Source: an uncultured Candidatus Saccharibacteria bacterium (GTDB lineage Bacteria; Patescibacteriota; Minisyncoccia; UBA6257; 2-01-FULL-56-20). From it: 35,207 bases of DNA. The notes under the pieces were generated by a model that worked only from the letters and a program-made list of their open reading frames with translations, was not told the origin of the DNA and ran no database searches. How positions within the stretch are numbered: position 1 is the stretch's first letter; every line of letters begins with the position of its first letter. Made by a program: the position numbers and the translations under genes. Shown here piece after piece: positions 2,237-23,953 of this stretch. The stretch lies in contig CAYHEU010000001.1 of assembly GCA_964355785.1 (NCBI GenBank), positions 1 through 35,207 on the forward strand. The letters are read 5' to 3'.

Positions 2237-2302
2237 GGGCCTATAGCTTAGTGGCACCCGCCCGACCGAACACATCGGTCGTTCGGGCGGGGAGCATCCG
2301 GT
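2237..2302 (+). pseudogene. Truncated 5' half of tRNA-Ala(UGC), positions 1 to about 32, interrupted by a 35-nt hairpin in the D-loop
   Basis: 2237-2256 (GGGCCTATAGCTTAGTGGCA) and 2292-2302 (GAGCATCCGGT) are identical to nt 1-31 of the intact tRNA at 2540. Identity stops in the anticodon loop. No anticodon 3' strand, T arm or acceptor 3' strand follows. Confidence 0.75.
2257..2291 (+). repeat. Structured palindromic mini-element, family 1 (CCCGCCCGAC...GTCGTTCGGGCGGG)
   Basis: CCCGCCCGAC-CGAACACATCG-GTCGTTCGGGCGGG. 9-bp outer stem, 4-bp inner stem CCGA/TCGG, and a 3' TCGT bulge. It shares its 10-nt and 14-nt termini with the copy at 13240..13275. Confidence 0.8.
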
Positions 2303-2305
2303 AGT

Positions 2306-2554
2306 ATGTACACTGTATATATTCTTCAAGACAGCCGAGGAAAATTGTATAAAGGAATGACGAATAATCTGAAAAGAAGGTTGAAAGAACACCGAAGTGG
2401 ACACACGAAGACAACTTCACGTATGATCAATATCTCTGTGGTATATACCGAAACATTCAAGGAGTTAGGTTCGGCAAGAAAACGAGAGCTGTACCTTAAA
2501 TCCGCCGCCGGCAGAAGATTCTTGAAGAAGATACTGCAAGGGCCTATAGCTTAG
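2306..2554 (+). CDS. GIY-YIG nuclease-superfamily protein (short UPF0213-like, 82 aa)
   Basis: N-terminus YTVYILQDSRGKLYKGMTNNLKRRLKEH matches the GIY-(10-11)-YxG...R...E pattern. The ATG lies 4 nt after the tRNA-fragment homology ends. The last 5 codons and the stop (GPIA*) are encoded by the first 15 nt of the intact tRNA-Ala. Confidence 0.8.
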   Translation: MYTVYILQDSRGKLYKGMTNNLKRRLKEHRSGHTKTTSRMINISVVYTETFKELGSARKRELYLKSAAGRRFLKKILQGPIA

Positions 2555-2610
2555 TGGCAGAGCATCCGGTTTGCATCCGGAAGATGGGGGTTCGATTCCC
2601 CCTAGGTCCA
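2540..2610 (+). tRNA. tRNA-Ala (anticodon UGC)
   Basis: Acceptor GGGCCTA/TAGGTCC with G3:U70. D arm GCTT-AGTGGCA-GAGC. Anticodon stem TCCGG/CCGGA with loop TT-TGC-AT. T arm GGGGG-TTCGATT-CCCCC. Discriminator A, no encoded CCA. Confidence 0.9.
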
Positions 2611-2617
2611 CGAAAAA

Positions 2618-3241
2618 ATGCAAAAACGCGTTTTCATAATTCACGGTTGGGATAGCTCCCCTTACGACGCATGGATCCCATGGCTTTGGACGGAGCTCGA
2701 GAACCATGACTTCAAGGTGGAGGTTCCTCTAATGCCGAACGCACAGGCGCCGGAGATAGAAATCTGGGTGAGCCACTTGAAGAATCTCGTGGGCGATCCG
2801 GACGAAGAAACTTATTTCGTGGGACACAGCGTCGGATGCCAAGCCATTATTCGCTATCTCGAATCACTCGAGGAAGGAACGAAAGTCGGCGGCGCAGTTT
2901 TTGTGGGAGGGTGGTTCACCTTGAGCGGTGATGCAATGAAAACCGAGGAGGAAAAGGAAGTTGCCCTCCCGTGGCTCGAGACGCCAATTGATTTCGAGAA
3001 AGCGAAAAGAGTCACGACGAATTTCGCCGCAGTGCTTTCAGATAATGACCCCTATGTACCCCTCAAGGACAATAAAGAAATTTTTCAAGAAAAGTTCTCT
3101 GCCCGAGTGATCATCGAGCACAACAAGGGACATTTCAGCCGAGAAGACAACATTACCGAGCTTCCGATCACGCTCGATCTGCTTCTTGATATGGTATATC
3201 AAAAAGATAAATTAGGCGTGGATGAGGAAACTTCTTCTTAG
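2618..3241 (+). CDS. Alpha/beta serine hydrolase (YdeN/RBBP9-like Ser_hydrolase family)
   Basis: 207 aa. FIIHGWDSS, nucleophile elbow VGHSVGC, LSDNDPYVP and HNKGHF form a Ser-Asp-His arrangement typical of this family. The ATG is only 7 nt after the tRNA-Ala 3' end. Confidence 0.8.
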   Translation: MQKRVFIIHGWDSSPYDAWIPWLWTELENHDFKVEVPLMPNAQAPEIEIWVSHLKNLVGDPDEETYFVGHSVGCQAIIRYLESLEEGTKVGGAVFVGGWFTLSGDAMKTEEEKEVALPWLETPIDFEKAKRVTTNFAAVLSDNDPYVPLKDNKEIFQEKFSARVIIEHNKGHFSREDNITELPITLDLLLDMVYQKDKLGVDEETSS

Positions 3242-9468: not shown

Positions 9469-9501
9469 AACAGCGAGTAGAAAGTAGGCGGTAGAAAGTA
9501 G
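9466..9501 (+). repeat. Heptad-periodic TAG array (left arm, GTAG heptamers)
   Basis: Plus-strand TAG at 9466 (the htrA stop), 9478, 9485, 9492 and 9499. The last four are spaced exactly 7 nt apart, so all three frames are closed. The arm is imperfectly complementary to the right arm at 9873..9903. Confidence 0.8.
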
Positions 9502-9514
9502 AGCTTTCAAGAAA

Positions 9515-9872: not shown

Positions 9873-9903
9873 TTACTCTCTACTCTCTACTTGCTACTCT
9901 CTA
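9873..9903 (-). repeat. Heptad-periodic TAG array (right arm, read on the minus strand)
   Basis: Plus-strand CTA at 9880, 9887, 9894 and 9901, which reads as minus-strand TAG every 7 nt. The last one is the stop codon of the 9901..10809 gene. CTACTCT heptamers. Confidence 0.8.
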
Positions 9904-10809
9904 GTATGTGTAGAGATCCACAAGGAGGCCGTTCTGATCGAGGAGAAGCACTCTGTCGTGCCGAAAATCAAGGAACTTGCTGTTTGGGCCGGTGTTCCCC
10001 GTCCACGCACGAACTTCTCTCCCAAGAAAATCCTCGTCGTTCTGATATTTTTCAAAACACCCGCGGTAGTTGATTTTATTCAAATACGCACGGCATTCGT
10101 AGTCGTCGAGCGCAATCGGCGGGTTCGATTCCGGCTCTGCGCAGTAACCGAGGGAATAAATATAGTCCTGACACTCACCGCGAAACCTCGAGATTCCATA
10201 CGAATCGACGATCGAAGGACAACCTCCGTAAAGCGGCGGATTAAAGTCGTAGTACTTCTCGAGATAGCCGAGGCACTTGTTAAGCCGCAAGTTGCGGCCG
10301 ATGGGACTTACCGTTGAGTAAATATTTAAGGAATCGCCGCTCCGCAGATAAATGTTGTTTTCCGGAGCATTCCCGAGCGGATCATAAACCTGAACGGCGC
10401 GATAAGGAACATTTTGAAAGCTTTTGTTCCCTTGGAGGCGCCAGCCCTTGAGCGGAATCGCGCGTTCGCCGTCGAACCATGCCGAAAGGACGATTTGGCT
10501 GTAATCGTCCGGAGAACCCGGGAATGCGGTCGCAATTCTCACCTTGTGGAAATAGGGTGAGAGCTGGTCGAGCGTAAATCCTTGGGGAATTTCTCCGGGG
10601 TCAATACTCGGAAGATTCCCTTGCGGCGGGGGCTCTTCCTGTGGTGGTTCGTTTTGCGGCGGAGGAATATTTTCCCCTCCCTCGTGAACCGCTCCTTTGG
10701 TCGACGTTGAATTTTCTCCTAGAGGACCCTGGAGCCGCCCCGGCTGATTTACATAAATCGCGGCTCCGATAAGAACGGCGAAAATTACAATTCCAAAAAT
10801 CCTCCCCAT
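9901..10809 (-). CDS. Membrane-anchored secreted protein, possible lamin-tail-like (LTD) domain plus Cys-rich C-terminal region
   Basis: 302 aa. GGAGG RBS. N-terminal TM helix IFGIVIFAVLIGAAIYV, a Pro-rich linker, then …IVLSAWFDGERAIPLKGWRLQGNK…IYLRSGDSLNIYS (LTD-like pattern), followed by 6 Cys. Confidence 0.75.
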   Translation of the reverse strand: MGRIFGIVIFAVLIGAAIYVNQPGRLQGPLGENSTSTKGAVHEGGENIPPPQNEPPQEEPPPQGNLPSIDPGEIPQGFTLDQLSPYFHKVRIATAFPGSPDDYSQIVLSAWFDGERAIPLKGWRLQGNKSFQNVPYRAVQVYDPLGNAPENNIYLRSGDSLNIYSTVSPIGRNLRLNKCLGYLEKYYDFNPPLYGGCPSIVDSYGISRFRGECQDYIYSLGYCAEPESNPPIALDDYECRAYLNKINYRGCFEKYQNDEDFLGREVRAWTGNTGPNSKFLDFRHDRVLLLDQNGLLVDLYTY

Positions 10810-10818
10810 ACCTCCTAA

Positions 10819-13800
10819 TTAAACCACGATATTTATCAAACGTTGAGGAACGTAGATCACGCGCTTCGGCTTTTTCCCCGCGAGAAACGCCGTTATTTTC
10901 TCTCTCCGAAGTGCGGTCTCTTTTGCATCAGATTCGGAAATATCCACATTGACCTCAACGCTGTCCCGAACCTTACCATTCACCTGAATTACCAACATAA
11001 ACTTTTCATCTTGAATAAGGCGTTCATCGTACGAAGGCCACGGCGAAATGTGGATTGAGTTCTTGTTTCCCAAAACATTTCTCCAAATCTCCTCGGTAAT
11101 GTGGGGCGCAAACGGGGCGAGGAGCTTGAGAAAATCTGAATAAGATTTTTTATCAGTCCCCTTTTCAAGTTCGGATAAAAGAATCATAAGCGAGCTTATT
11201 GCCGTATTGTAATGAAGATTTTCTATATCCTCGGTGATTTTCTTAATTGTTTTATGTACCAATCGCTCAATTTTCTTATTCGTGGCATTCGAGTTCATTT
11301 GGAGATTTGCATTGTGTTCTAATTTCCAAACCCGTTCCAAAAATCTCACCGGTCCCAAAATCCCCGCATCGCGGAAATCGCCGCCTTCCTCAAAGGGACC
11401 GATAAACATAAGATGCATACGGAGCGCATCTGCGCCAAATTTTTTGATGAACTCATCGGGGTTCACGATATTTCCCCGCGACTTTGAAATCTTTTTTCCT
11501 TCACGGATCAAAAGACCGTGCGCGCGAAATTTTTTTGCAGGTTCGTCTCCGCCCGAGGCGGATCCGCCTTTGGCGGAAAAAGGTAAAATCCCTAAGTCAC
11601 AAAGCGCTTTCCACATAAACCGGACGTAGAGAAGGTGGAGTACCGCGTGCTCCGCGCCGCCGATATACATATGAACCGGCAACCATTTTTTTATCCTGAG
11701 CTTGTCGAAGGGCGAATTCTTATCTTTTGGATCAAGATAGCGAAGATAGTACCACGCAGAATCAAGGAATGTGTCCGAAACGTCGGTTTCGCGAACCCCT
11801 TTTGCGCCACAGTGAGGACACTTCACCTCATAGAACGACCTTACCGTCGCAAGCGGCGATTTTCCCATGCCTTTCGGACGGAAATTTTTTACTTTCGGAA
11901 GTTCCACCGGCAAATCATTTTCTGGAACCGCATGCCAACCGGGCATATCATCCCTCTCGCCTCTTTTCTCCTTGGCACACGCCCCGCAGTAGATCATTGG
12001 AATCGGCGGCCCCCAATAGCGCTGGCGCGAGATCAACCAATCACGGAGGCGGTACTGGACCTTTTTTACTCCTCCGACATCACGCATCACCTTATCGCTA
12101 TCCACGAGCGGCGCATCGCTCGCGGGAAGCCCGAACATTTCCGCGAACTCCGCATCCCGCTCATCGTGCGCGGGGACGGCCATAATGGCGCCCGTGCCGT
12201 AACCCATAACCACATAATCAGCAACCCAGATGGGAATTTCTCGTTTTGTTCCGGGATTCATTGCCTCCACTCCTTTAAGCTCCACGCCTGTTTTCTTTCT
12301 TCCCTCGGCAATCCGCTCGTTTTCGGATTTCTTCTTTGCTCTTCTCACATATGCCTCAACTTCCCGAAGATTTAAGATCTGAGATTTTCCGCCCGAGGCG
12401 GATCCGCCTTTGGCGGAAAGATTTGAGATCAGTGGATGCTCTGGCGCAAGCACCACGTAGGTTGCGCCGTAGAGCGTGTCGGGACGCGTGGTGAAAACTT
12501 TTATTGTGGGCAACAGAGTATTTAATATAAGAGGTTCTTGCGCTCCTGTAAGATGCTCTTTATGTGCAAATCCTTCAATAAATTTAGTTTGTAATTTATC
12601 GCGCAAGTATTCTAAGTATGGACCTCGCTTATCTTTCTCCAGGGAATCGGAAATTATGGTTACAGAATTGCTCAATTTTTTCAGCAATTCGTAGTCATAT
12701 TCAAATGAAAAAGTTTTCCAAAATGGCCTCTCTTCGCCGGTACGAAAACGAGGCTCTACGGCTGGGGCAACAAGAACAAGCCCAGCGATGGGACGATTAA
12801 TCTTTTGCAATACTTTCATGGCTACTACTCCTCCTAAGCTATGACCAACGATAATAGTGTGCTCATTTATTCGGCAATTTTTAACAACATAATCAACTTG
12901 TTCCGATTCTACGGGATGATCAGTATTAGGCATTTGAGGTGCTTGGACACCAAAACCCTGTTGCTCCAGTTTCTCTTTTAACCACGGAATGAAGTTCTTA
13001 TTTACATGGCCAGTATAACCGTGGAGGATCAAAAAATTGGTATTTTTATTCAATACAACCGGAAAATCTATCTCCGTGCCTTCCGACTTCCCTATCCAGT
13101 TCCGCTGGGCAACTTTGATTCTCTCCGACCAATCAAGACCGTCCAGGTCTTTAATAAGGCGCTCGGCGTACTTGGTAATCCTGAAAAACCACTGTTCAAG
13201 CTCTTTTTTCTCCACGACAGAATCGCAGCGCTCGCATTTCCCGCCCGAACGACTGACGTCGCTCAGTCGGGCGGGCCCGCCAACAACCTGCTCGTCGGCT
13301 AAAACCGTGAGGCACGAGGGGCACCAGTTTACCGCCTGCTTTCTGCGGTAAGCCAGTCCGTTCTTGAACATTTGGGTGAAGATCCATTGCGTCCATTTGT
13401 AATACTTTGGATCAAAGGTTTCCAGATGCTCATTCCAAGCAAAACCATTGCCAATTTCACGGAGTTGGCGATAGAAGTTTTTCTCTGAAATTTTCGCTTG
13501 CTCGGCAGGATGCTTCTTTGTTTTCAATGCATAGTTTTCGGAGTGGATTCCAAAGCCATCAAGCCCGATCGGCTCGAAAACGTCATTCCCCTGCATCCGT
13601 TTCACGCGCCCATAGATATCGGATCCAACGAACGCATACATATTCCCGACATGGAGGCCCTCTGCCGATGGATATGGGAACATCATTAGGTTATAAAAAG
13701 GCGCAGCCTTTTTACCATGAGCCCGTCGAAGGGCAGAATGGTCACCTTGAGCGAAGGAGGGCTCATAAACCCCCTCTTTTAACCACTTGCTTTGCCAGTA

Positions 13801-13830
13801 TTTTTCTATCCTCTTAAAATCGTATTTCAT
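10819..13830 (-). CDS. leuS: Leucyl-tRNA synthetase with several in-frame insertions, including an alpha/beta-hydrolase domain
   Basis: Class I motifs: PYPSAEGLHVGN (HIGH-like) and KISKSRGN (KMSKS). Also NWCPSC…CERC Zn motif, NWIGKSEG, VFTTRPDT, YGTGAIMAVPAHDERD (CP1 editing domain) and RLRDWLISRQRYWG. Start placed at M18 (MKYDFKRIEKYWQ), which matches the conserved LeuRS N-terminus. The ORF itself extends up to 13881. Confidence 0.95.
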   Translation of the reverse strand: MKYDFKRIEKYWQSKWLKEGVYEPSFAQGDHSALRRAHGKKAAPFYNLMMFPYPSAEGLHVGNMYAFVGSDIYGRVKRMQGNDVFEPIGLDGFGIHSENYALKTKKHPAEQAKISEKNFYRQLREIGNGFAWNEHLETFDPKYYKWTQWIFTQMFKNGLAYRRKQAVNWCPSCLTVLADEQVVGGPARLSDVSRSGGKCERCDSVVEKKELEQWFFRITKYAERLIKDLDGLDWSERIKVAQRNWIGKSEGTEIDFPVVLNKNTNFLILHGYTGHVNKNFIPWLKEKLEQQGFGVQAPQMPNTDHPVESEQVDYVVKNCRINEHTIIVGHSLGGVVAMKVLQKINRPIAGLVLVAPAVEPRFRTGEERPFWKTFSFEYDYELLKKLSNSVTIISDSLEKDKRGPYLEYLRDKLQTKFIEGFAHKEHLTGAQEPLILNTLLPTIKVFTTRPDTLYGATYVVLAPEHPLISNLSAKGGSASGGKSQILNLREVEAYVRRAKKKSENERIAEGRKKTGVELKGVEAMNPGTKREIPIWVADYVVMGYGTGAIMAVPAHDERDAEFAEMFGLPASDAPLVDSDKVMRDVGGVKKVQYRLRDWLISRQRYWGPPIPMIYCGACAKEKRGERDDMPGWHAVPENDLPVELPKVKNFRPKGMGKSPLATVRSFYEVKCPHCGAKGVRETDVSDTFLDSAWYYLRYLDPKDKNSPFDKLRIKKWLPVHMYIGGAEHAVLHLLYVRFMWKALCDLGILPFSAKGGSASGGDEPAKKFRAHGLLIREGKKISKSRGNIVNPDEFIKKFGADALRMHLMFIGPFEEGGDFRDAGILGPVRFLERVWKLEHNANLQMNSNATNKKIERLVHKTIKKITEDIENLHYNTAISSLMILLSELEKGTDKKSYSDFLKLLAPFAPHITEEIWRNVLGNKNSIHISPWPSYDERLIQDEKFMLVIQVNGKVRDSVEVNVDISESDAKETALRREKITAFLAGKKPKRVIYVPQRLINIVV
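11548..11577 (-). repeat. Double-hairpin mini-element, family 2 (copy 2), in frame in leuS
   Basis: The sense strand TCCGCC-AAA-GGCGGA-TCCGCC-TCG-GGCGGA is exactly 10 codons (SAKGGSASGG) in phase. It is identical to 12388..12417. Confidence 0.85.
12388..12417 (-). repeat. Double-hairpin mini-element, family 2 (copy 1), in frame in leuS
   Basis: Same 30-mer (32 nt identical when flanks are included), encoding SAKGGSASGG at residues 489-498 of the ORF. Confidence 0.85.
13240..13275 (-). repeat. Structured palindromic mini-element, family 1, in frame in the leuS Zn-finger loop
   Basis: The sense strand CCCGCCCGAC-TGAGCGACGTCA-GTCGTTCGGGCGGG is exactly 12 codons (PARLSDVSRSGG, ORF codons 203-214). 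It sits between VVGG and KCERC. Same termini and same fold as 2257..2291. Confidence 0.85.
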
Positions 13831-13922
13831 TTTTTCTGCCTGCCCGCCGTAGTCCCGCAAAACGGAACGAAGGAGGGCCAATATTTTTCTATTTTTTGGA
13901 AGTTATAACTCTTCATTCAATA

Positions 13923-14324
13923 TTACAGGTTTCCTTTTTCTAGAAGTTCTCTTAAATAAATATCCACGCCCTGAAGTTTTTTTAAATCTTCTGGTTTAAA
14001 CCACTGGAATTCTGTATTTTCTTCGTTGAGCTTCACTACACCCTCCGCCTCCCCCAAGTACGTCAATCTCACAACGTGCCTACCCGAAACCCGCAAAATA
14101 TCTTGAGCAGCTATCAATTTTGGTTCTCCTGGAAGATCAAGGCCAACCTCCTCGCTAACTTCCCGTTTCAGGTTTTCCAATAAGGTTGAGCCGGGATTGA
14201 TACGCCCACCAGGAATGTCCCACACGCTACCAACCTCGGGATATTTATCCGAAGATCTCCGAACCATTAAGTATTTCCCCTCCTTGTCTCGTAATAGAAT
14301 TTTTACCCCGACCTGTAGTTCCAT
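13923..14324 (-). CDS. NUDIX hydrolase
   Basis: 133 aa with a Nudix box: GGRINPGSTLLENLKREVSEEVGL (GX5EX7REUXEEXGU pattern). Confidence 0.85.
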   Translation of the reverse strand: MELQVGVKILLRDKEGKYLMVRRSSDKYPEVGSVWDIPGGRINPGSTLLENLKREVSEEVGLDLPGEPKLIAAQDILRVSGRHVVRLTYLGEAEGVVKLNEENTEFQWFKPEDLKKLQGVDIYLRELLEKGNL

Positions 14325-22162: not shown

Positions 22163-22234
22163 TAGAGAGTAGCTTGTAGCCAGTAGTGAGTAGGAAGAAC
22201 TTTTGATTTTCTACTTACTACTCTCTACTTTCTA
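22163..22234. repeat. Cargo-less inverted pair of heptad TAG arrays
   Basis: Left arm has plus-strand TAG at 22163, 22170, 22177, 22184 and 22191. Right arm has plus-strand CTA (minus-strand TAG) at 22211, 22218, 22225 and 22232, the last being the thyX-like stop. About 17-nt spacer. The reverse complement of the right arm, GCGAGTAGAAAGTAG, is identical to 15 nt of the left arm at about 9473-9487. Confidence 0.85.
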
Positions 22235-23953
22235 CTCGCTTTTGTTTGGAGAACTTTCCCCTACCCCCTGCCTCTTTTTCGCAAGTTTCTCGACAATATC
22301 CTTTTCTTTCTCGGAGATTTTCTCTTCTGTGCCGCGCCGCGCAATTGCGTAGTCGTTCATGTCCACAAGCATGAAACTCGCAAGAAGCGGAAATTTTTCT
22401 TTCACCAACCGATACTTTTCCTGCTCAATAAACCGGTAGTCGGGATGTCCTTGGGAAATGGTGCGAAGCTCTGTTTCCCAAAAAAGCTGACGGAAGTTCT
22501 TCCATTGATAAAATCGGAGGCGATACGCGAGCGGTACGACGTACTGCGCAAGAACCGGATCTTTCTCTTCGATCTTTCTGAAAAATGCGCTCGCTCCTTC
22601 CAAAGCTTCCCGGAATTGGCCCTCAAGGCCCGCCTCGGGGATTTCCGGCGGGACATCATAGCCATGGTGAGTCGAGAAGTATTCGCGATCCTGCGTCATC
22701 ATCCGGTGGCGGTGGAGATCTCGATAACTCCCGATATTCATCGTAATCTCAAAACGCAGGTATGAATTCTCAAACGCACGTCCGACTTTGTGCCAGCGCG
22801 CCGAACGATTCAAAAGATAGAAGCTTATTATTTCTTTTCGCTCCGATCCGGAAAGTTCTCTTGCGATCTGAAGCACTCTTTCCCATGTTGCGTGGGTGGC
22901 GGGAAAAATTATTCCCGCAATAATTTTTTCCTCCGCACGCGGGTCGCACTCCACGAGTTTCACCTCGGGCTTCGTCCCTCCTTTTTCGAGCAATTTCCCC
23001 TCTTCCGCATGCCGGGAGCTTTGGAGAAAACGGTGAACGGCCGCGCTCCGTTCGGCAAGATACCGCTGATATCCCTCCGATTTCTCGTCCCCAAGCCGCA
23101 AAAGAAGCGAAGGAATCTCGTTATCCAGTTCTCGCTTCACGGCGGAGGAAATCCACCGGAGTTCTCCCAAGGAATGCTTTGCGGTGCGATTAATCAAATA
23201 TTCGAGGGCCTGCGCATTCCCCCGGAACGCAACCTGCCCCAAGGTCGCCATAGGAAGAAGCCCCCGAAGGGTGTCGAACGCTTTTTTCTCCAAGACGGAT
23301 TCTTTTTCCTCGTAATTCTCCTTAAGCCACGCGAGAAGCCGCGGCAGGAGCTCCACGTAGGTATCAAAAAGATGGTCTAGCGTTTTCCGATACTCAGGAA
23401 GGATTCCGAGGCGTTCAAGATCCGGCTTCGGAATATAGTAGAGATAGCGATCCCTAATTTTCTTCCCAAAATTTACGTAGCGCGTGGATTTCTCGATCGG
23501 TTCGAGCCCAATCCGCTGATCCTCAACGAATTTCATCGCAACCTGCGAAATCCCCCAGAAGAGCACGTGCGTGCCCGTCATCTGGGCAATAGAGTCGTCG
23601 CCGTACTGGGAGAGCCACTTTGCATAAAATTCCTGCGCGCGCTGATTATTCAAGATATTTTTAAATCCCCGTTCGCGGAGAAAACTCACCGTCTCCTCGA
23701 GTTCTTTCGCGAGCGCTTTGTTTTCGCCCTCAAGGATCGGATAGAAATATTCCTTGAGAAGCACGCGGAGGAGCGAGTGCGGCGCACGGCTCGCGCGCGA
23801 ACAGAGCGCCCCTACGATCTCCGGCGGCAGGTTCCGAAGCACGTGCACGAGGCCGTCCACGTTTGTTGCGAACGGCTCCAAAAGGAATTTATCTTTTTCC
23901 GACCATTCTTCCCCGGGAAAATCGGGCGCGTACGCGTCTCTACTCTCCGGCAT
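22232..23953 (-). CDS. Long ThyX-like (FAD-dependent thymidylate synthase family) protein
   Basis: 573 aa. …GALCSRASRAP… and …YRDLHRHRMMTQ… resemble ThyX signatures. It is about twice the canonical length, and the RHR-x7-S serine is not at the canonical spacing. Confidence 0.6.
   Translation of the reverse strand: MPESRDAYAPDFPGEEWSEKDKFLLEPFATNVDGLVHVLRNLPPEIVGALCSRASRAPHSLLRVLLKEYFYPILEGENKALAKELEETVSFLRERGFKNILNNQRAQEFYAKWLSQYGDDSIAQMTGTHVLFWGISQVAMKFVEDQRIGLEPIEKSTRYVNFGKKIRDRYLYYIPKPDLERLGILPEYRKTLDHLFDTYVELLPRLLAWLKENYEEKESVLEKKAFDTLRGLLPMATLGQVAFRGNAQALEYLINRTAKHSLGELRWISSAVKRELDNEIPSLLLRLGDEKSEGYQRYLAERSAAVHRFLQSSRHAEEGKLLEKGGTKPEVKLVECDPRAEEKIIAGIIFPATHATWERVLQIARELSGSERKEIISFYLLNRSARWHKVGRAFENSYLRFEITMNIGSYRDLHRHRMMTQDREYFSTHHGYDVPPEIPEAGLEGQFREALEGASAFFRKIEEKDPVLAQYVVPLAYRLRFYQWKNFRQLFWETELRTISQGHPDYRFIEQEKYRLVKEKFPLLASFMLVDMNDYAIARRGTEEKISEKEKDIVEKLAKKRQGVGESSPNKSE

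Follow-up and report, generated by a model that had tools for sequence, protein, structure and literature searches.

The window analysed here, a stretch of 35,207 nucleotides (nt) from an uncultured Candidatus Saccharibacteria bacterium, carries two copies of a short GC-rich palindrome, designated element E. One lies inside leuS, the gene for leucyl-tRNA synthetase (LeuRS). The other lies inside a displaced 5′ fragment of a tRNA-Ala gene, beside a gene for a small GIY-YIG nuclease. Element E is mobile, structured, tolerated in frame and strongly coupled to GIY-YIG cassettes that invade tRNA genes. It is considered mobile because the tRNA provides an exact empty site, because leuS orthologs without the insert exist, and because nested and tandem copies occur. 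With a probability of about 60%, element E is a widespread family of very short GC-rich mobile palindromes, for which the cassette copy represents the main niche and the leuS copy a solo insertion, and which spreads by copying during break repair.

Two copies of element E and their empty sites

The leuS copy reads CCCGCCCGAC-TGAGCGACGTCA-GTCGTTCGGGCGGG on the sense strand and the cassette copy reads CCCGCCCGAC-CGAACACATCG-GTCGTTCGGGCGGG (positions in Table 1). The pattern CCCGCCCGAC-N(11-12)-GTCGTTCGGGCGGG gave these two matches in the window and none in 100 dinucleotide-preserving shuffles. Both sequences and their coordinates are as written in a first-pass annotation made from the letters of the DNA. 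No further copies were found in the window, relaxed patterns included. Both copies fold far beyond shuffled sequences, with energies of -25.4 kcal/mol (z = -5.1) and -22.7 kcal/mol (z = -3.75). The minimum-energy fold of the leuS copy uses an inner helix, GCGAC/GUCGU, other than the one drawn in that annotation. The two inner folds of element E, a 4-bp helix (positions 10-13 with 20-23, TCGT unpaired) and a 7-bp helix (GAACGAC with GTCGTTC), are mutually exclusive and compete. Searches of Rfam gave no matching family for element E, either at gathering thresholds or at an E-value limit of 10, and a known RNA family was thereby ruled out as its identity.

At the tRNA locus, the empty site is provided by the intact tRNA-Ala 283 nt downstream of the cassette copy, which reads ggca/gagc (slashes mark junctions throughout). 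The fragment, ...agtggca/E/gagcatccggt, differs from the intact tRNA only by the 35-nt element, and there is no target-site duplication (ggca/E/gagc vs ggca/gagc). Neither ARAGORN nor Rfam called a tRNA on the fragment. The host had been described earlier as a tRNA-Ala fragment, and it does duplicate 31 nt from the 5′ end region of the intact tRNA. Residence in an expressed tRNA had also been proposed and does not hold, as the host is a dead 5′ fragment. The nuclease gene starts 3 nt past the fragment, and its stop codon, TAG (2552-2554), falls within the intact tRNA-Ala. Its last four codons and the stop overlap this tRNA (2540-2554), and most relatives overlap their tRNA likewise. The 82-amino-acid (aa) protein consists of the catalytic domain only. 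That the fragment copy is part of a GIY-YIG cassette in tRNA-Ala, and that nearly all such cassettes bear a palindrome at this place, had been overlooked in the first-pass annotation. A free-standing Ser_hydrolase gene (2618-3241) follows directly after the cassette tRNA.

Table 1. Element E, its host genes and the tRNA-Ala cassette in the window
Feature	Position	Strand	Basis or detail
Displaced 5′ fragment of tRNA-Ala(TGC)	2237-2302	+	2237-2256 plus 2292-2302 = 31 nt identical to 2540-2570
Element E, cassette copy, 35 nt	2257-2291	+	Between last D-loop base and 3′ strand of D stem, in the displaced tRNA-Ala 5′ fragment
Free-standing GIY-YIG nuclease gene, 82 aa	2306-2554	+	Pfam GIY-YIG, E = 7e-12
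Intact tRNA-Ala(TGC), restored cassette target gene	2540-2611	+	ARAGORN; Rfam 72.3 bits
leuS, leucyl-tRNA synthetase, host of element E	10819-13833	-	Pfam tRNA-synt_1, LeuRS editing domain, Anticodon_1
Element E, solo copy, 36 nt = 12 codons (PARLSDVSRSGG)	13240-13275	-	leuS sense strand, tip of CxxC...CxxC zinc knuckle

The probable start of leuS is the ATG of MKYDF at 13833, which gives 1,005 codons; the open reading frame (ORF) as listed starts at TTG 13881. As had been noted earlier, the insert comprises exactly 12 codons in phase 0, flanked by VVGG and KCERC, and it lies between the two zinc-knuckle CxxC motifs. The N-termini of LeuRS from 120 Patescibacteria (best identity 72%) were compared with it. 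Approximately 105 of them read ADEQV-[I/V/E]-x-G-[K/E]-CERC with nothing inserted, and the insert of the window was present in none of the 120; the possibility that related LeuRS proteins all contain its residues thus proved not to be the case. The empty site anticipated among leuS orthologs was found in DNA as well as in protein. Ortholog L290, with the same flanking residues, reads GTT ATT GGT GGA / AAG TGT GAG CGT, at the place where the leuS of the window reads GTT GTT GGC GGG [36 nt] AAA TGC GAG CGC. The final six bases of element E recur in its left flank as GGCGGG, so that the boundary of the leuS insert is ambiguous by 6 nt; such a repeat is not general in the family.

Other inserts are present at the zinc-knuckle tip in about 10 orthologs (P0001, P0003, P0031, P0043, P0046, P0051, P0081 and P0099 are among the carriers), which indicates that this loop of LeuRS tolerates insertions. 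A tandem repeat (L291), a different palindromic element encoding ILSERSESKD (L292) and the E-like PARQARPGVAGG (P0081) were found there. The tip is thus a hotspot for insertions in Patescibacteria at large. An AlphaFold model of the LeuRS N-terminus, of moderate confidence (pLDDT 68.5), positions insert residues 186-197 within a coil that is flanked by two short strands.

Further insertions were observed in the same gene. A 30-nt double hairpin (TCCGCCCGAGGCGGA/TCCGCCTTTGGCGGA) represents a second family of mini-elements and has two copies in leuS, at 11548-11577 and 12388-12417 (- strand coding). Each is exactly 10 codons, SAKGGSASGG, and at the first site orthologs read ISNL/KSQI without an insert. 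Other genomes carry this family as well; in L096, for example, it occupies the D loop of a tRNA fragment adjoining a GIY-YIG gene, and in L162 it lies in an EF-P gene that harbours element E too. An insert of about 175 aa with an alpha/beta Ser_hydrolase domain (PF06821; approximately 12691-13035, - strand) lies between the catalytic core and the editing domain of LeuRS. Orthologs have 63-85 aa at this place, and P0016 also has a hydrolase. A NUDIX domain was among the Pfam hits of the LeuRS gene product in L291, and a separate NUDIX gene (13923-14324) lies immediately upstream of leuS in the window. In L290 and L291, the N-terminal part of LeuRS was called as its own gene.

Element E across genomes and in coding sequences

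One genome per species, 596 Gb in all, was scanned for the exact 24 terminal bases of element E separated by a 4-24-nt centre. More than 119 genome stretches matched, against a calculated chance expectation of about 0.1, so the copies are not limited to the two described above. The counts that follow rest on 134 copies among the matches listed (133 in the tRNA-junction test). They come from many classes of Patescibacteria, from Bacteroidota and Ignavibacteria, and from a small number of other bins; complete or isolate genomes of Bacteroidota include Chitinophagaceae MMS25-I14 (CP197396), Zeaxanthinibacter enoshimensis DSM 18435 and Niastella soli MAH-29. Lengths range from 28 to 48 nt, the commonest being 36 nt (51 copies), 29 nt (20) and 30 nt (19). 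Between the termini CCCGCCCGAC...GTCGTTCGGGCGGG the centre is variable and pairing is kept. Each copy begins with CCCGCCCG or a variant of it, for example CCTGCCCG or CCAGCCCG. They are mostly single; nested copies were seen in L216, L219, L230 and L257, and tandem copies were also found. In viral contigs, a relaxed pattern retrieved mostly unrelated terminator-like hairpins.

Within the element, variation clusters at positions 14-19, and covariation is seen in the stems. Covariation was assessed on 43 distinct 36-mers, in the centre, which the search pattern leaves free. Pair 11-22 was U-A in 35 sequences, C-G in 7 and unpaired in 1, while pair 13-20 was A-U in 25, G-C in 7, G-U in 2 and unpaired in 9. 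Double-sided cells numbered 14, compared with 3.6 +/- 1.6 in shuffles, and none of 500 shuffles scored as high. The compensatory inner-stem change proposed from the two window copies is thus substantiated, since the sole T-A to C-G difference between them recurs as a covarying pair across the family. The C-G and G-C states appear in varied combinations and are also present among copies of 30, 37 and 47-48 nt. Several events were therefore involved, though the number of independent ones is modest. At the alternative 7-bp helix only one-sided, G-U-type changes were seen, because its 3′ arm is fixed by the pattern.

A total of 22 copies are read through by long ORFs, of which 19 are robust. All 19 robust copies are 30 or 36 nt long, whereas 66 of 112 non-coding copies have a length that is a multiple of three (Fisher p = 1.5e-4). 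The coding copies are mostly in phase 0, where they give P-A-R...S-G-G in either orientation, and they contain no stop codon. The proteins concerned include SecA, DNA polymerase I (PolA), Pif1-type helicases, a Mfd-like helicase, CarB, PurH, AlaRS, PheRS beta (PheT), TGT, EF-P and a beta-CASP RNase. On the strength of reading frame, element E would add 10-12 amino acids to essential proteins and be translated rather than removed.

The two window copies share one orientation relative to the sense strand of their hosts. This observation of the first-pass annotation was correct, but across the family no orientation rule relative to host genes exists, and within ORFs 8 copies are sense and 14 antisense. 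The annotation was likewise right that conservation acts at the level of the nucleic acid; the random orientation relative to transcription, however, favours a DNA symmetry (hairpin, cruciform or a site for a dimeric or symmetric protein) over a strand-specific RNA structure.

GIY-YIG cassettes and a proposed origin of the palindromes

After removal of element E, the junction matched a real tRNA for at least 22 of 133 copies, as against 0 of 400 random positions. The tRNA-fragment copies are oriented like the tRNA in 12 cases and opposite to it in 10. Twelve of the 134 copies lie 13-45 nt from a GIY-YIG ORF. Two mirror architectures were recognised: a 5′ fragment with element E, the GIY-YIG gene and the intact tRNA, or the intact tRNA, the GIY-YIG gene and a 3′ fragment with element E, which then occupies the T loop or the anticodon loop. 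Only tRNA loops and palindrome centres stand out as target contexts, and tRNA contexts hold at most about one third of the copies found by the pattern.

An unbiased test was carried out on 80 metagenomic loci chosen by GIY-YIG protein similarity alone. Relatives of the window nuclease number more than 124 in metagenomes, and nearly all abut a tRNA gene. About 72 of the 80 loci abut an intact tRNA, with 14 specificities represented. Loci were assessable when a tRNA lay downstream and sufficient DNA was available upstream. This held for 66, of which 62 carried an upstream duplicate of the tRNA 5′ part; about 58 of these duplicates were split by a GC-rich palindrome, located at tRNA position 9, 13, 20-22 or 36-37. 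Close nuclease relatives (at least 60% identity) carried element E or its variants E1b, CCCGCCCGTACCGAACGGTACGTTCGGGCGGG, and E3, CCTGCCCGAATGAAC...TTCAGGCGGG. In distant GIY-YIG clades this place is taken by unrelated palindromes: tRNA-Arg cassettes carry CCTGCCTGCCGGCAGGCAGG, and those of Ser and Gln carry double hairpins. About 90% of the fragments are occupied, and this extends to duplicates still identical to the tRNA (31/31 in the window; L223 and L244, 38-40/40). As a possible sign that element E separates resident from incoming DNA, mismatch rates on its two sides were compared; they were 0.066 per site 5′ of element E and 0.17 per site 3′ of it, a comparison confounded by the 3′ piece, which is short and runs into the ORF. 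The order tRNA fragment, palindrome, GIY-YIG gene, intact tRNA is a recurrent architecture, very common and apparently undescribed. Full-text searches of the literature, the literal sequence among the queries, turned up no published description of it or of element E.

Tandem arrays of tRNA 5′ fragment, palindrome and spacer or ORF were observed upstream of one intact tRNA in L174 (Ignavibacteriae), L224, L255, L176 and L164. They look like repeated re-invasion or segmental amplification at a single tRNA gene. In L224, L255 and L174 the tandem units have copied the palindrome together with the ORF, and these products hint at activity of the GIY-YIG cassette. Where a tRNA-fragment copy has no nuclease gene in its neighbourhood, it is accounted for as a relic lacking the ORF.

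Element E inserts without a target-site duplication and in either orientation. The following course of events is proposed for the window. A GIY-YIG gene would have inserted into tRNA-Ala, bringing or regenerating an intact copy of the tRNA, and the palindrome at 2257-2291 interrupts the direct repeat that the fragment makes with the intact gene. Recombination in the repeat on the distal side of the palindrome would yield a dead, palindrome-disrupted tRNA; this outcome, together with the reduced stretch of uninterrupted homology available for clean deletion, could make loss of the cassette rarer. The leuS copy would have landed between two codons at the zinc-knuckle surface loop, where it is presumably transcribed and translated as PARLSDVSRSGG, and it may persist because it consists of 12 sense codons without a stop. 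New copies would originate in DNA, when double-strand breaks are repaired from a template (gene conversion), and the GIY-YIG nuclease would be the likely source of these breaks. The palindrome may be retained in cassettes because it destroys a nuclease or recombination target in the fragment.

A bolder proposal is put forward tentatively. GC-rich mini-palindromes and catalytic-domain-only GIY-YIG nucleases might form a two-part mobile system, in which the nuclease invades tRNA genes and the palindrome is a cis partner that marks or locks the fragment and is copied in trans into breaks made by the nuclease; we would sooner bet against this than for it. That such a system is common in Patescibacteria and Bacteroidota/Ignavibacteria and writes 10-12-residue inserts into essential proteins is conceivable, with the odds again on the other side.

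Several points weigh against the reading of element E as a mobile family copied by break repair. The link between nuclease and palindrome is a correlation only. The subtypes E1, E1b and E3 are interleaved among star-like clusters of GIY-YIG proteins, so there is no clean co-evolution of enzyme and site, and E1 accompanies GIY-YIG proteins that are only 37-50% identical to each other. Positions and orientations within the fragment vary, and repeated independent insertion fits them as well as a fixed module does. For most solo copies the available 8 kb contains no GIY-YIG gene, and a few cassettes lack a fragment or palindrome (L218, L248/L249, L258). Outside tRNA contexts the flank consensus is weak, G-A-T-N/, and generic targeting of hairpin loops was rejected, since stems of at least 4 bp were formed by 24% of flanks compared with 27% at random positions. 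The strict search pattern fixes the termini, and their conservation is thus partly an effect of ascertainment. Some taxonomic labels of metagenome-assembled genomes may be binning errors; this could apply to the few bins labelled Planctomycetota or Gammaproteobacteria.

The palindrome might alternatively be a selected module of the cassette, either a lock against deletion or self-cleavage, or a hairpin at the 5′ end of the nuclease mRNA with a stabilising or regulatory effect, and solo copies would be rare by-products. In favour of this, the duplicated segment nearly always contains a palindrome, of whatever family, position or orientation; unrelated palindromes in distant GIY-YIG clades and tandem units that duplicate the palindrome along with the ORF also accord with a selected module. 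Solo copies are not rare, however, given that tRNA contexts account for a third of the pattern-found copies at most, and cassettes without a fragment exist. This explanation is possible but doubtful.

The mismatch between subtypes and clades, the variable positions and the solo copies without a nuclease make an unseen transposase a serious rival. Element E would then resemble a miniature inverted-repeat transposable element (MITE) or a repetitive extragenic palindrome (REP), moved by an enzyme encoded elsewhere, e.g. of the Y1/HUH type, and dead tRNA fragments would be harmless landing sites, or safe havens, in which the nuclease plays no part. Insertion at positions 9, 13, 20-22, 36-37 and in the T loop in both orientations, nested or multiple palindromes of different families within one fragment, E types that do not follow GIY-YIG clades, and the many solo copies distant from any GIY-YIG gene could all be attributed to such an enzyme. 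It would need an extreme target preference to occupy about 90% of fragments of only about 35 nt, identical duplicates included. There is moreover no target-site duplication and no GTAG head, no transposase was present among the scanned ORFs in this 35 kb of the genome, and the same 24 terminal bases occur across phyla, unlike the species-specific pairing of REPs with their transposases. We regard this rival as unlikely.

Removal of element E from transcripts, as an intron-like intervening sequence or a processing hairpin, is highly improbable. The stable hairpin, the many one-sided changes compatible with G-U pairing and the residence in tRNA loops, which are possible sites of archaeal introns, could be read in this way. 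None of the 134 copies, however, lies in a complete tRNA: ARAGORN predicted no spanning tRNA after deletion of the element, and an intron in whole tRNAs was ruled out on this basis. Coding copies are limited to multiples of three and free of stop codons, both orientations occur in ORFs and in tRNA fragments, and Rfam gave no match even at its permissive limit. Chance GC-rich hairpins or an assembly artefact, for which nothing speaks except the small size of the element, can be dismissed in view of the absence of matches in shuffles, the preserved leuS frame and more than 130 copies in independent assemblies, including complete genomes of cultured Bacteroidota.

Should the reading of element E as a mobile family be true, it would explain the origin of some short lineage-specific inserts in essential proteins of ultra-small bacteria. 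One DNA element of about 30 nt circulates between distant phyla. A two-part system would, if real, be a general source of many small protein inserts in bacteria of the candidate phyla radiation and a bacterial counterpart of the partnership proposed between GC clusters and endonucleases in mitochondria. With a defined candidate enzyme, target sites and cultured Bacteroidota hosts, the movement of ORF-less GC-rich palindromes becomes directly testable. For annotation, such fragments and inserts mislead tRNA and gene callers.

Two other features of the window were noted. The ThyX ORF (22232-23953, - strand) encodes 573 aa with the Thy1 domain confined to residues 374-522, so that a long N-terminal part or insert is present. 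Runs of TACTCTC/TACTTTC-type heptamers, as direct and inverted repeats, lie at gene ends at 9874-9914, 22198-22252 and 9469-9502 (families D1, I2 and I3).

Comparison with known mobile palindromes and endonucleases

Element E and its cassette are a variation on kinds already described, for which no description of their own was found. REPs are extragenic imperfect palindromes headed by GTAG or GGAG, often arranged as inverted pairs, with a cognate gene for a Y1 transposase (REP-associated tyrosine transposase, RAYT). Element E resembles them, and the mosaic elements (BIMEs) they build, as a palindrome of about 35 nt in many copies. It differs in lacking a GTAG/GGAG head and inverted doublets, in having about 20 copies inside ORFs and in keeping the same sequence across phyla. 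The REP-like behaviour suggested at first was hence abandoned: the head is missing, the copies are not restricted to extragenic DNA, and no Y1/RAYT gene was seen in the window. Element E has the terminal inverted repeats of a MITE, but not a target-site duplication at the tRNA. A tRNA intron, whether group I or bulge-helix-bulge, does not correspond to it either, with 0/134 tRNAs recovered after removal and a 31-nt fragment as host in the window.

The likeness is closer to the Rickettsia palindromic elements (RPEs), reportedly described by Ogata et al. in 2000. RPEs are palindromic selfish DNA inserted in frame in housekeeping genes and translated as an extra surface peptide; they also occur in non-coding DNA and next to RNA genes and encode no transposase. 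The mobile, selfish character proposed in the first-pass annotation is upheld by the empty sites at both loci, by hundreds of copies elsewhere and by compensatory stem changes, and the RPE-type behaviour by in-frame copies in housekeeping genes. A palindrome that preserves the ORF is found in the leuS copy and in 19 further robust coding copies. Element E is 3-4 times shorter (28-48 nt vs roughly 100-150 nt), presumably unrelated in sequence, present in several phyla instead of one genus, and tied to GIY-YIG cassettes in tRNA genes. Its length and its occurrence in Patescibacteria and Bacteroidota make homology with RPEs implausible, and the resemblance is functional only. RPEs are mentioned in PMC1779305.

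In its layout the cassette agrees with a homing-endonuclease unit: an intact GIY-YIG ORF lies by a conserved target gene, and the arrangement recurs in many genomes, with about 72 of 80 relatives next to an intact tRNA gene. The GIY-YIG endonuclease SegB of phage T4 recognises a conserved motif of tRNA genes (PMC2330249) and drives segmental amplification (PMC13096335). SegB and the window cassette have in common a small GIY-YIG gene in or among tRNA genes and the tandem amplification of units; like SegB, the cassette would use a conserved tRNA-gene sequence as target, which allows spread across distant hosts. The window protein differs in having only the catalytic domain, and its ORF overlaps the tRNA, leaving a duplicated fragment that nearly always carries a palindrome. 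Neither the fragment nor the palindrome is described for SegB.

The mitochondrial GC clusters of yeasts are mobile GC-rich palindromes that merge and nest, whose hairpin is constrained and whose mobilisation by organellar homing endonucleases has been proposed (PMC4478555). Like these, element E is a short GC-rich mobile hairpin (30-80 nt in mitochondria), with substitutions concentrated in the loop and with nesting. The double-hairpin elements of Allomyces (Paquin et al. 2000, as cited in PMC4478555) find a likeness in the second family of the window, which is literally a double hairpin. GC clusters are organellar and mostly intergenic, with a putative AG/TAG target duplication, whereas element E is bacterial and shows no duplication at the tRNA site, and its endonuclease partner is a specific, recurrent neighbour.

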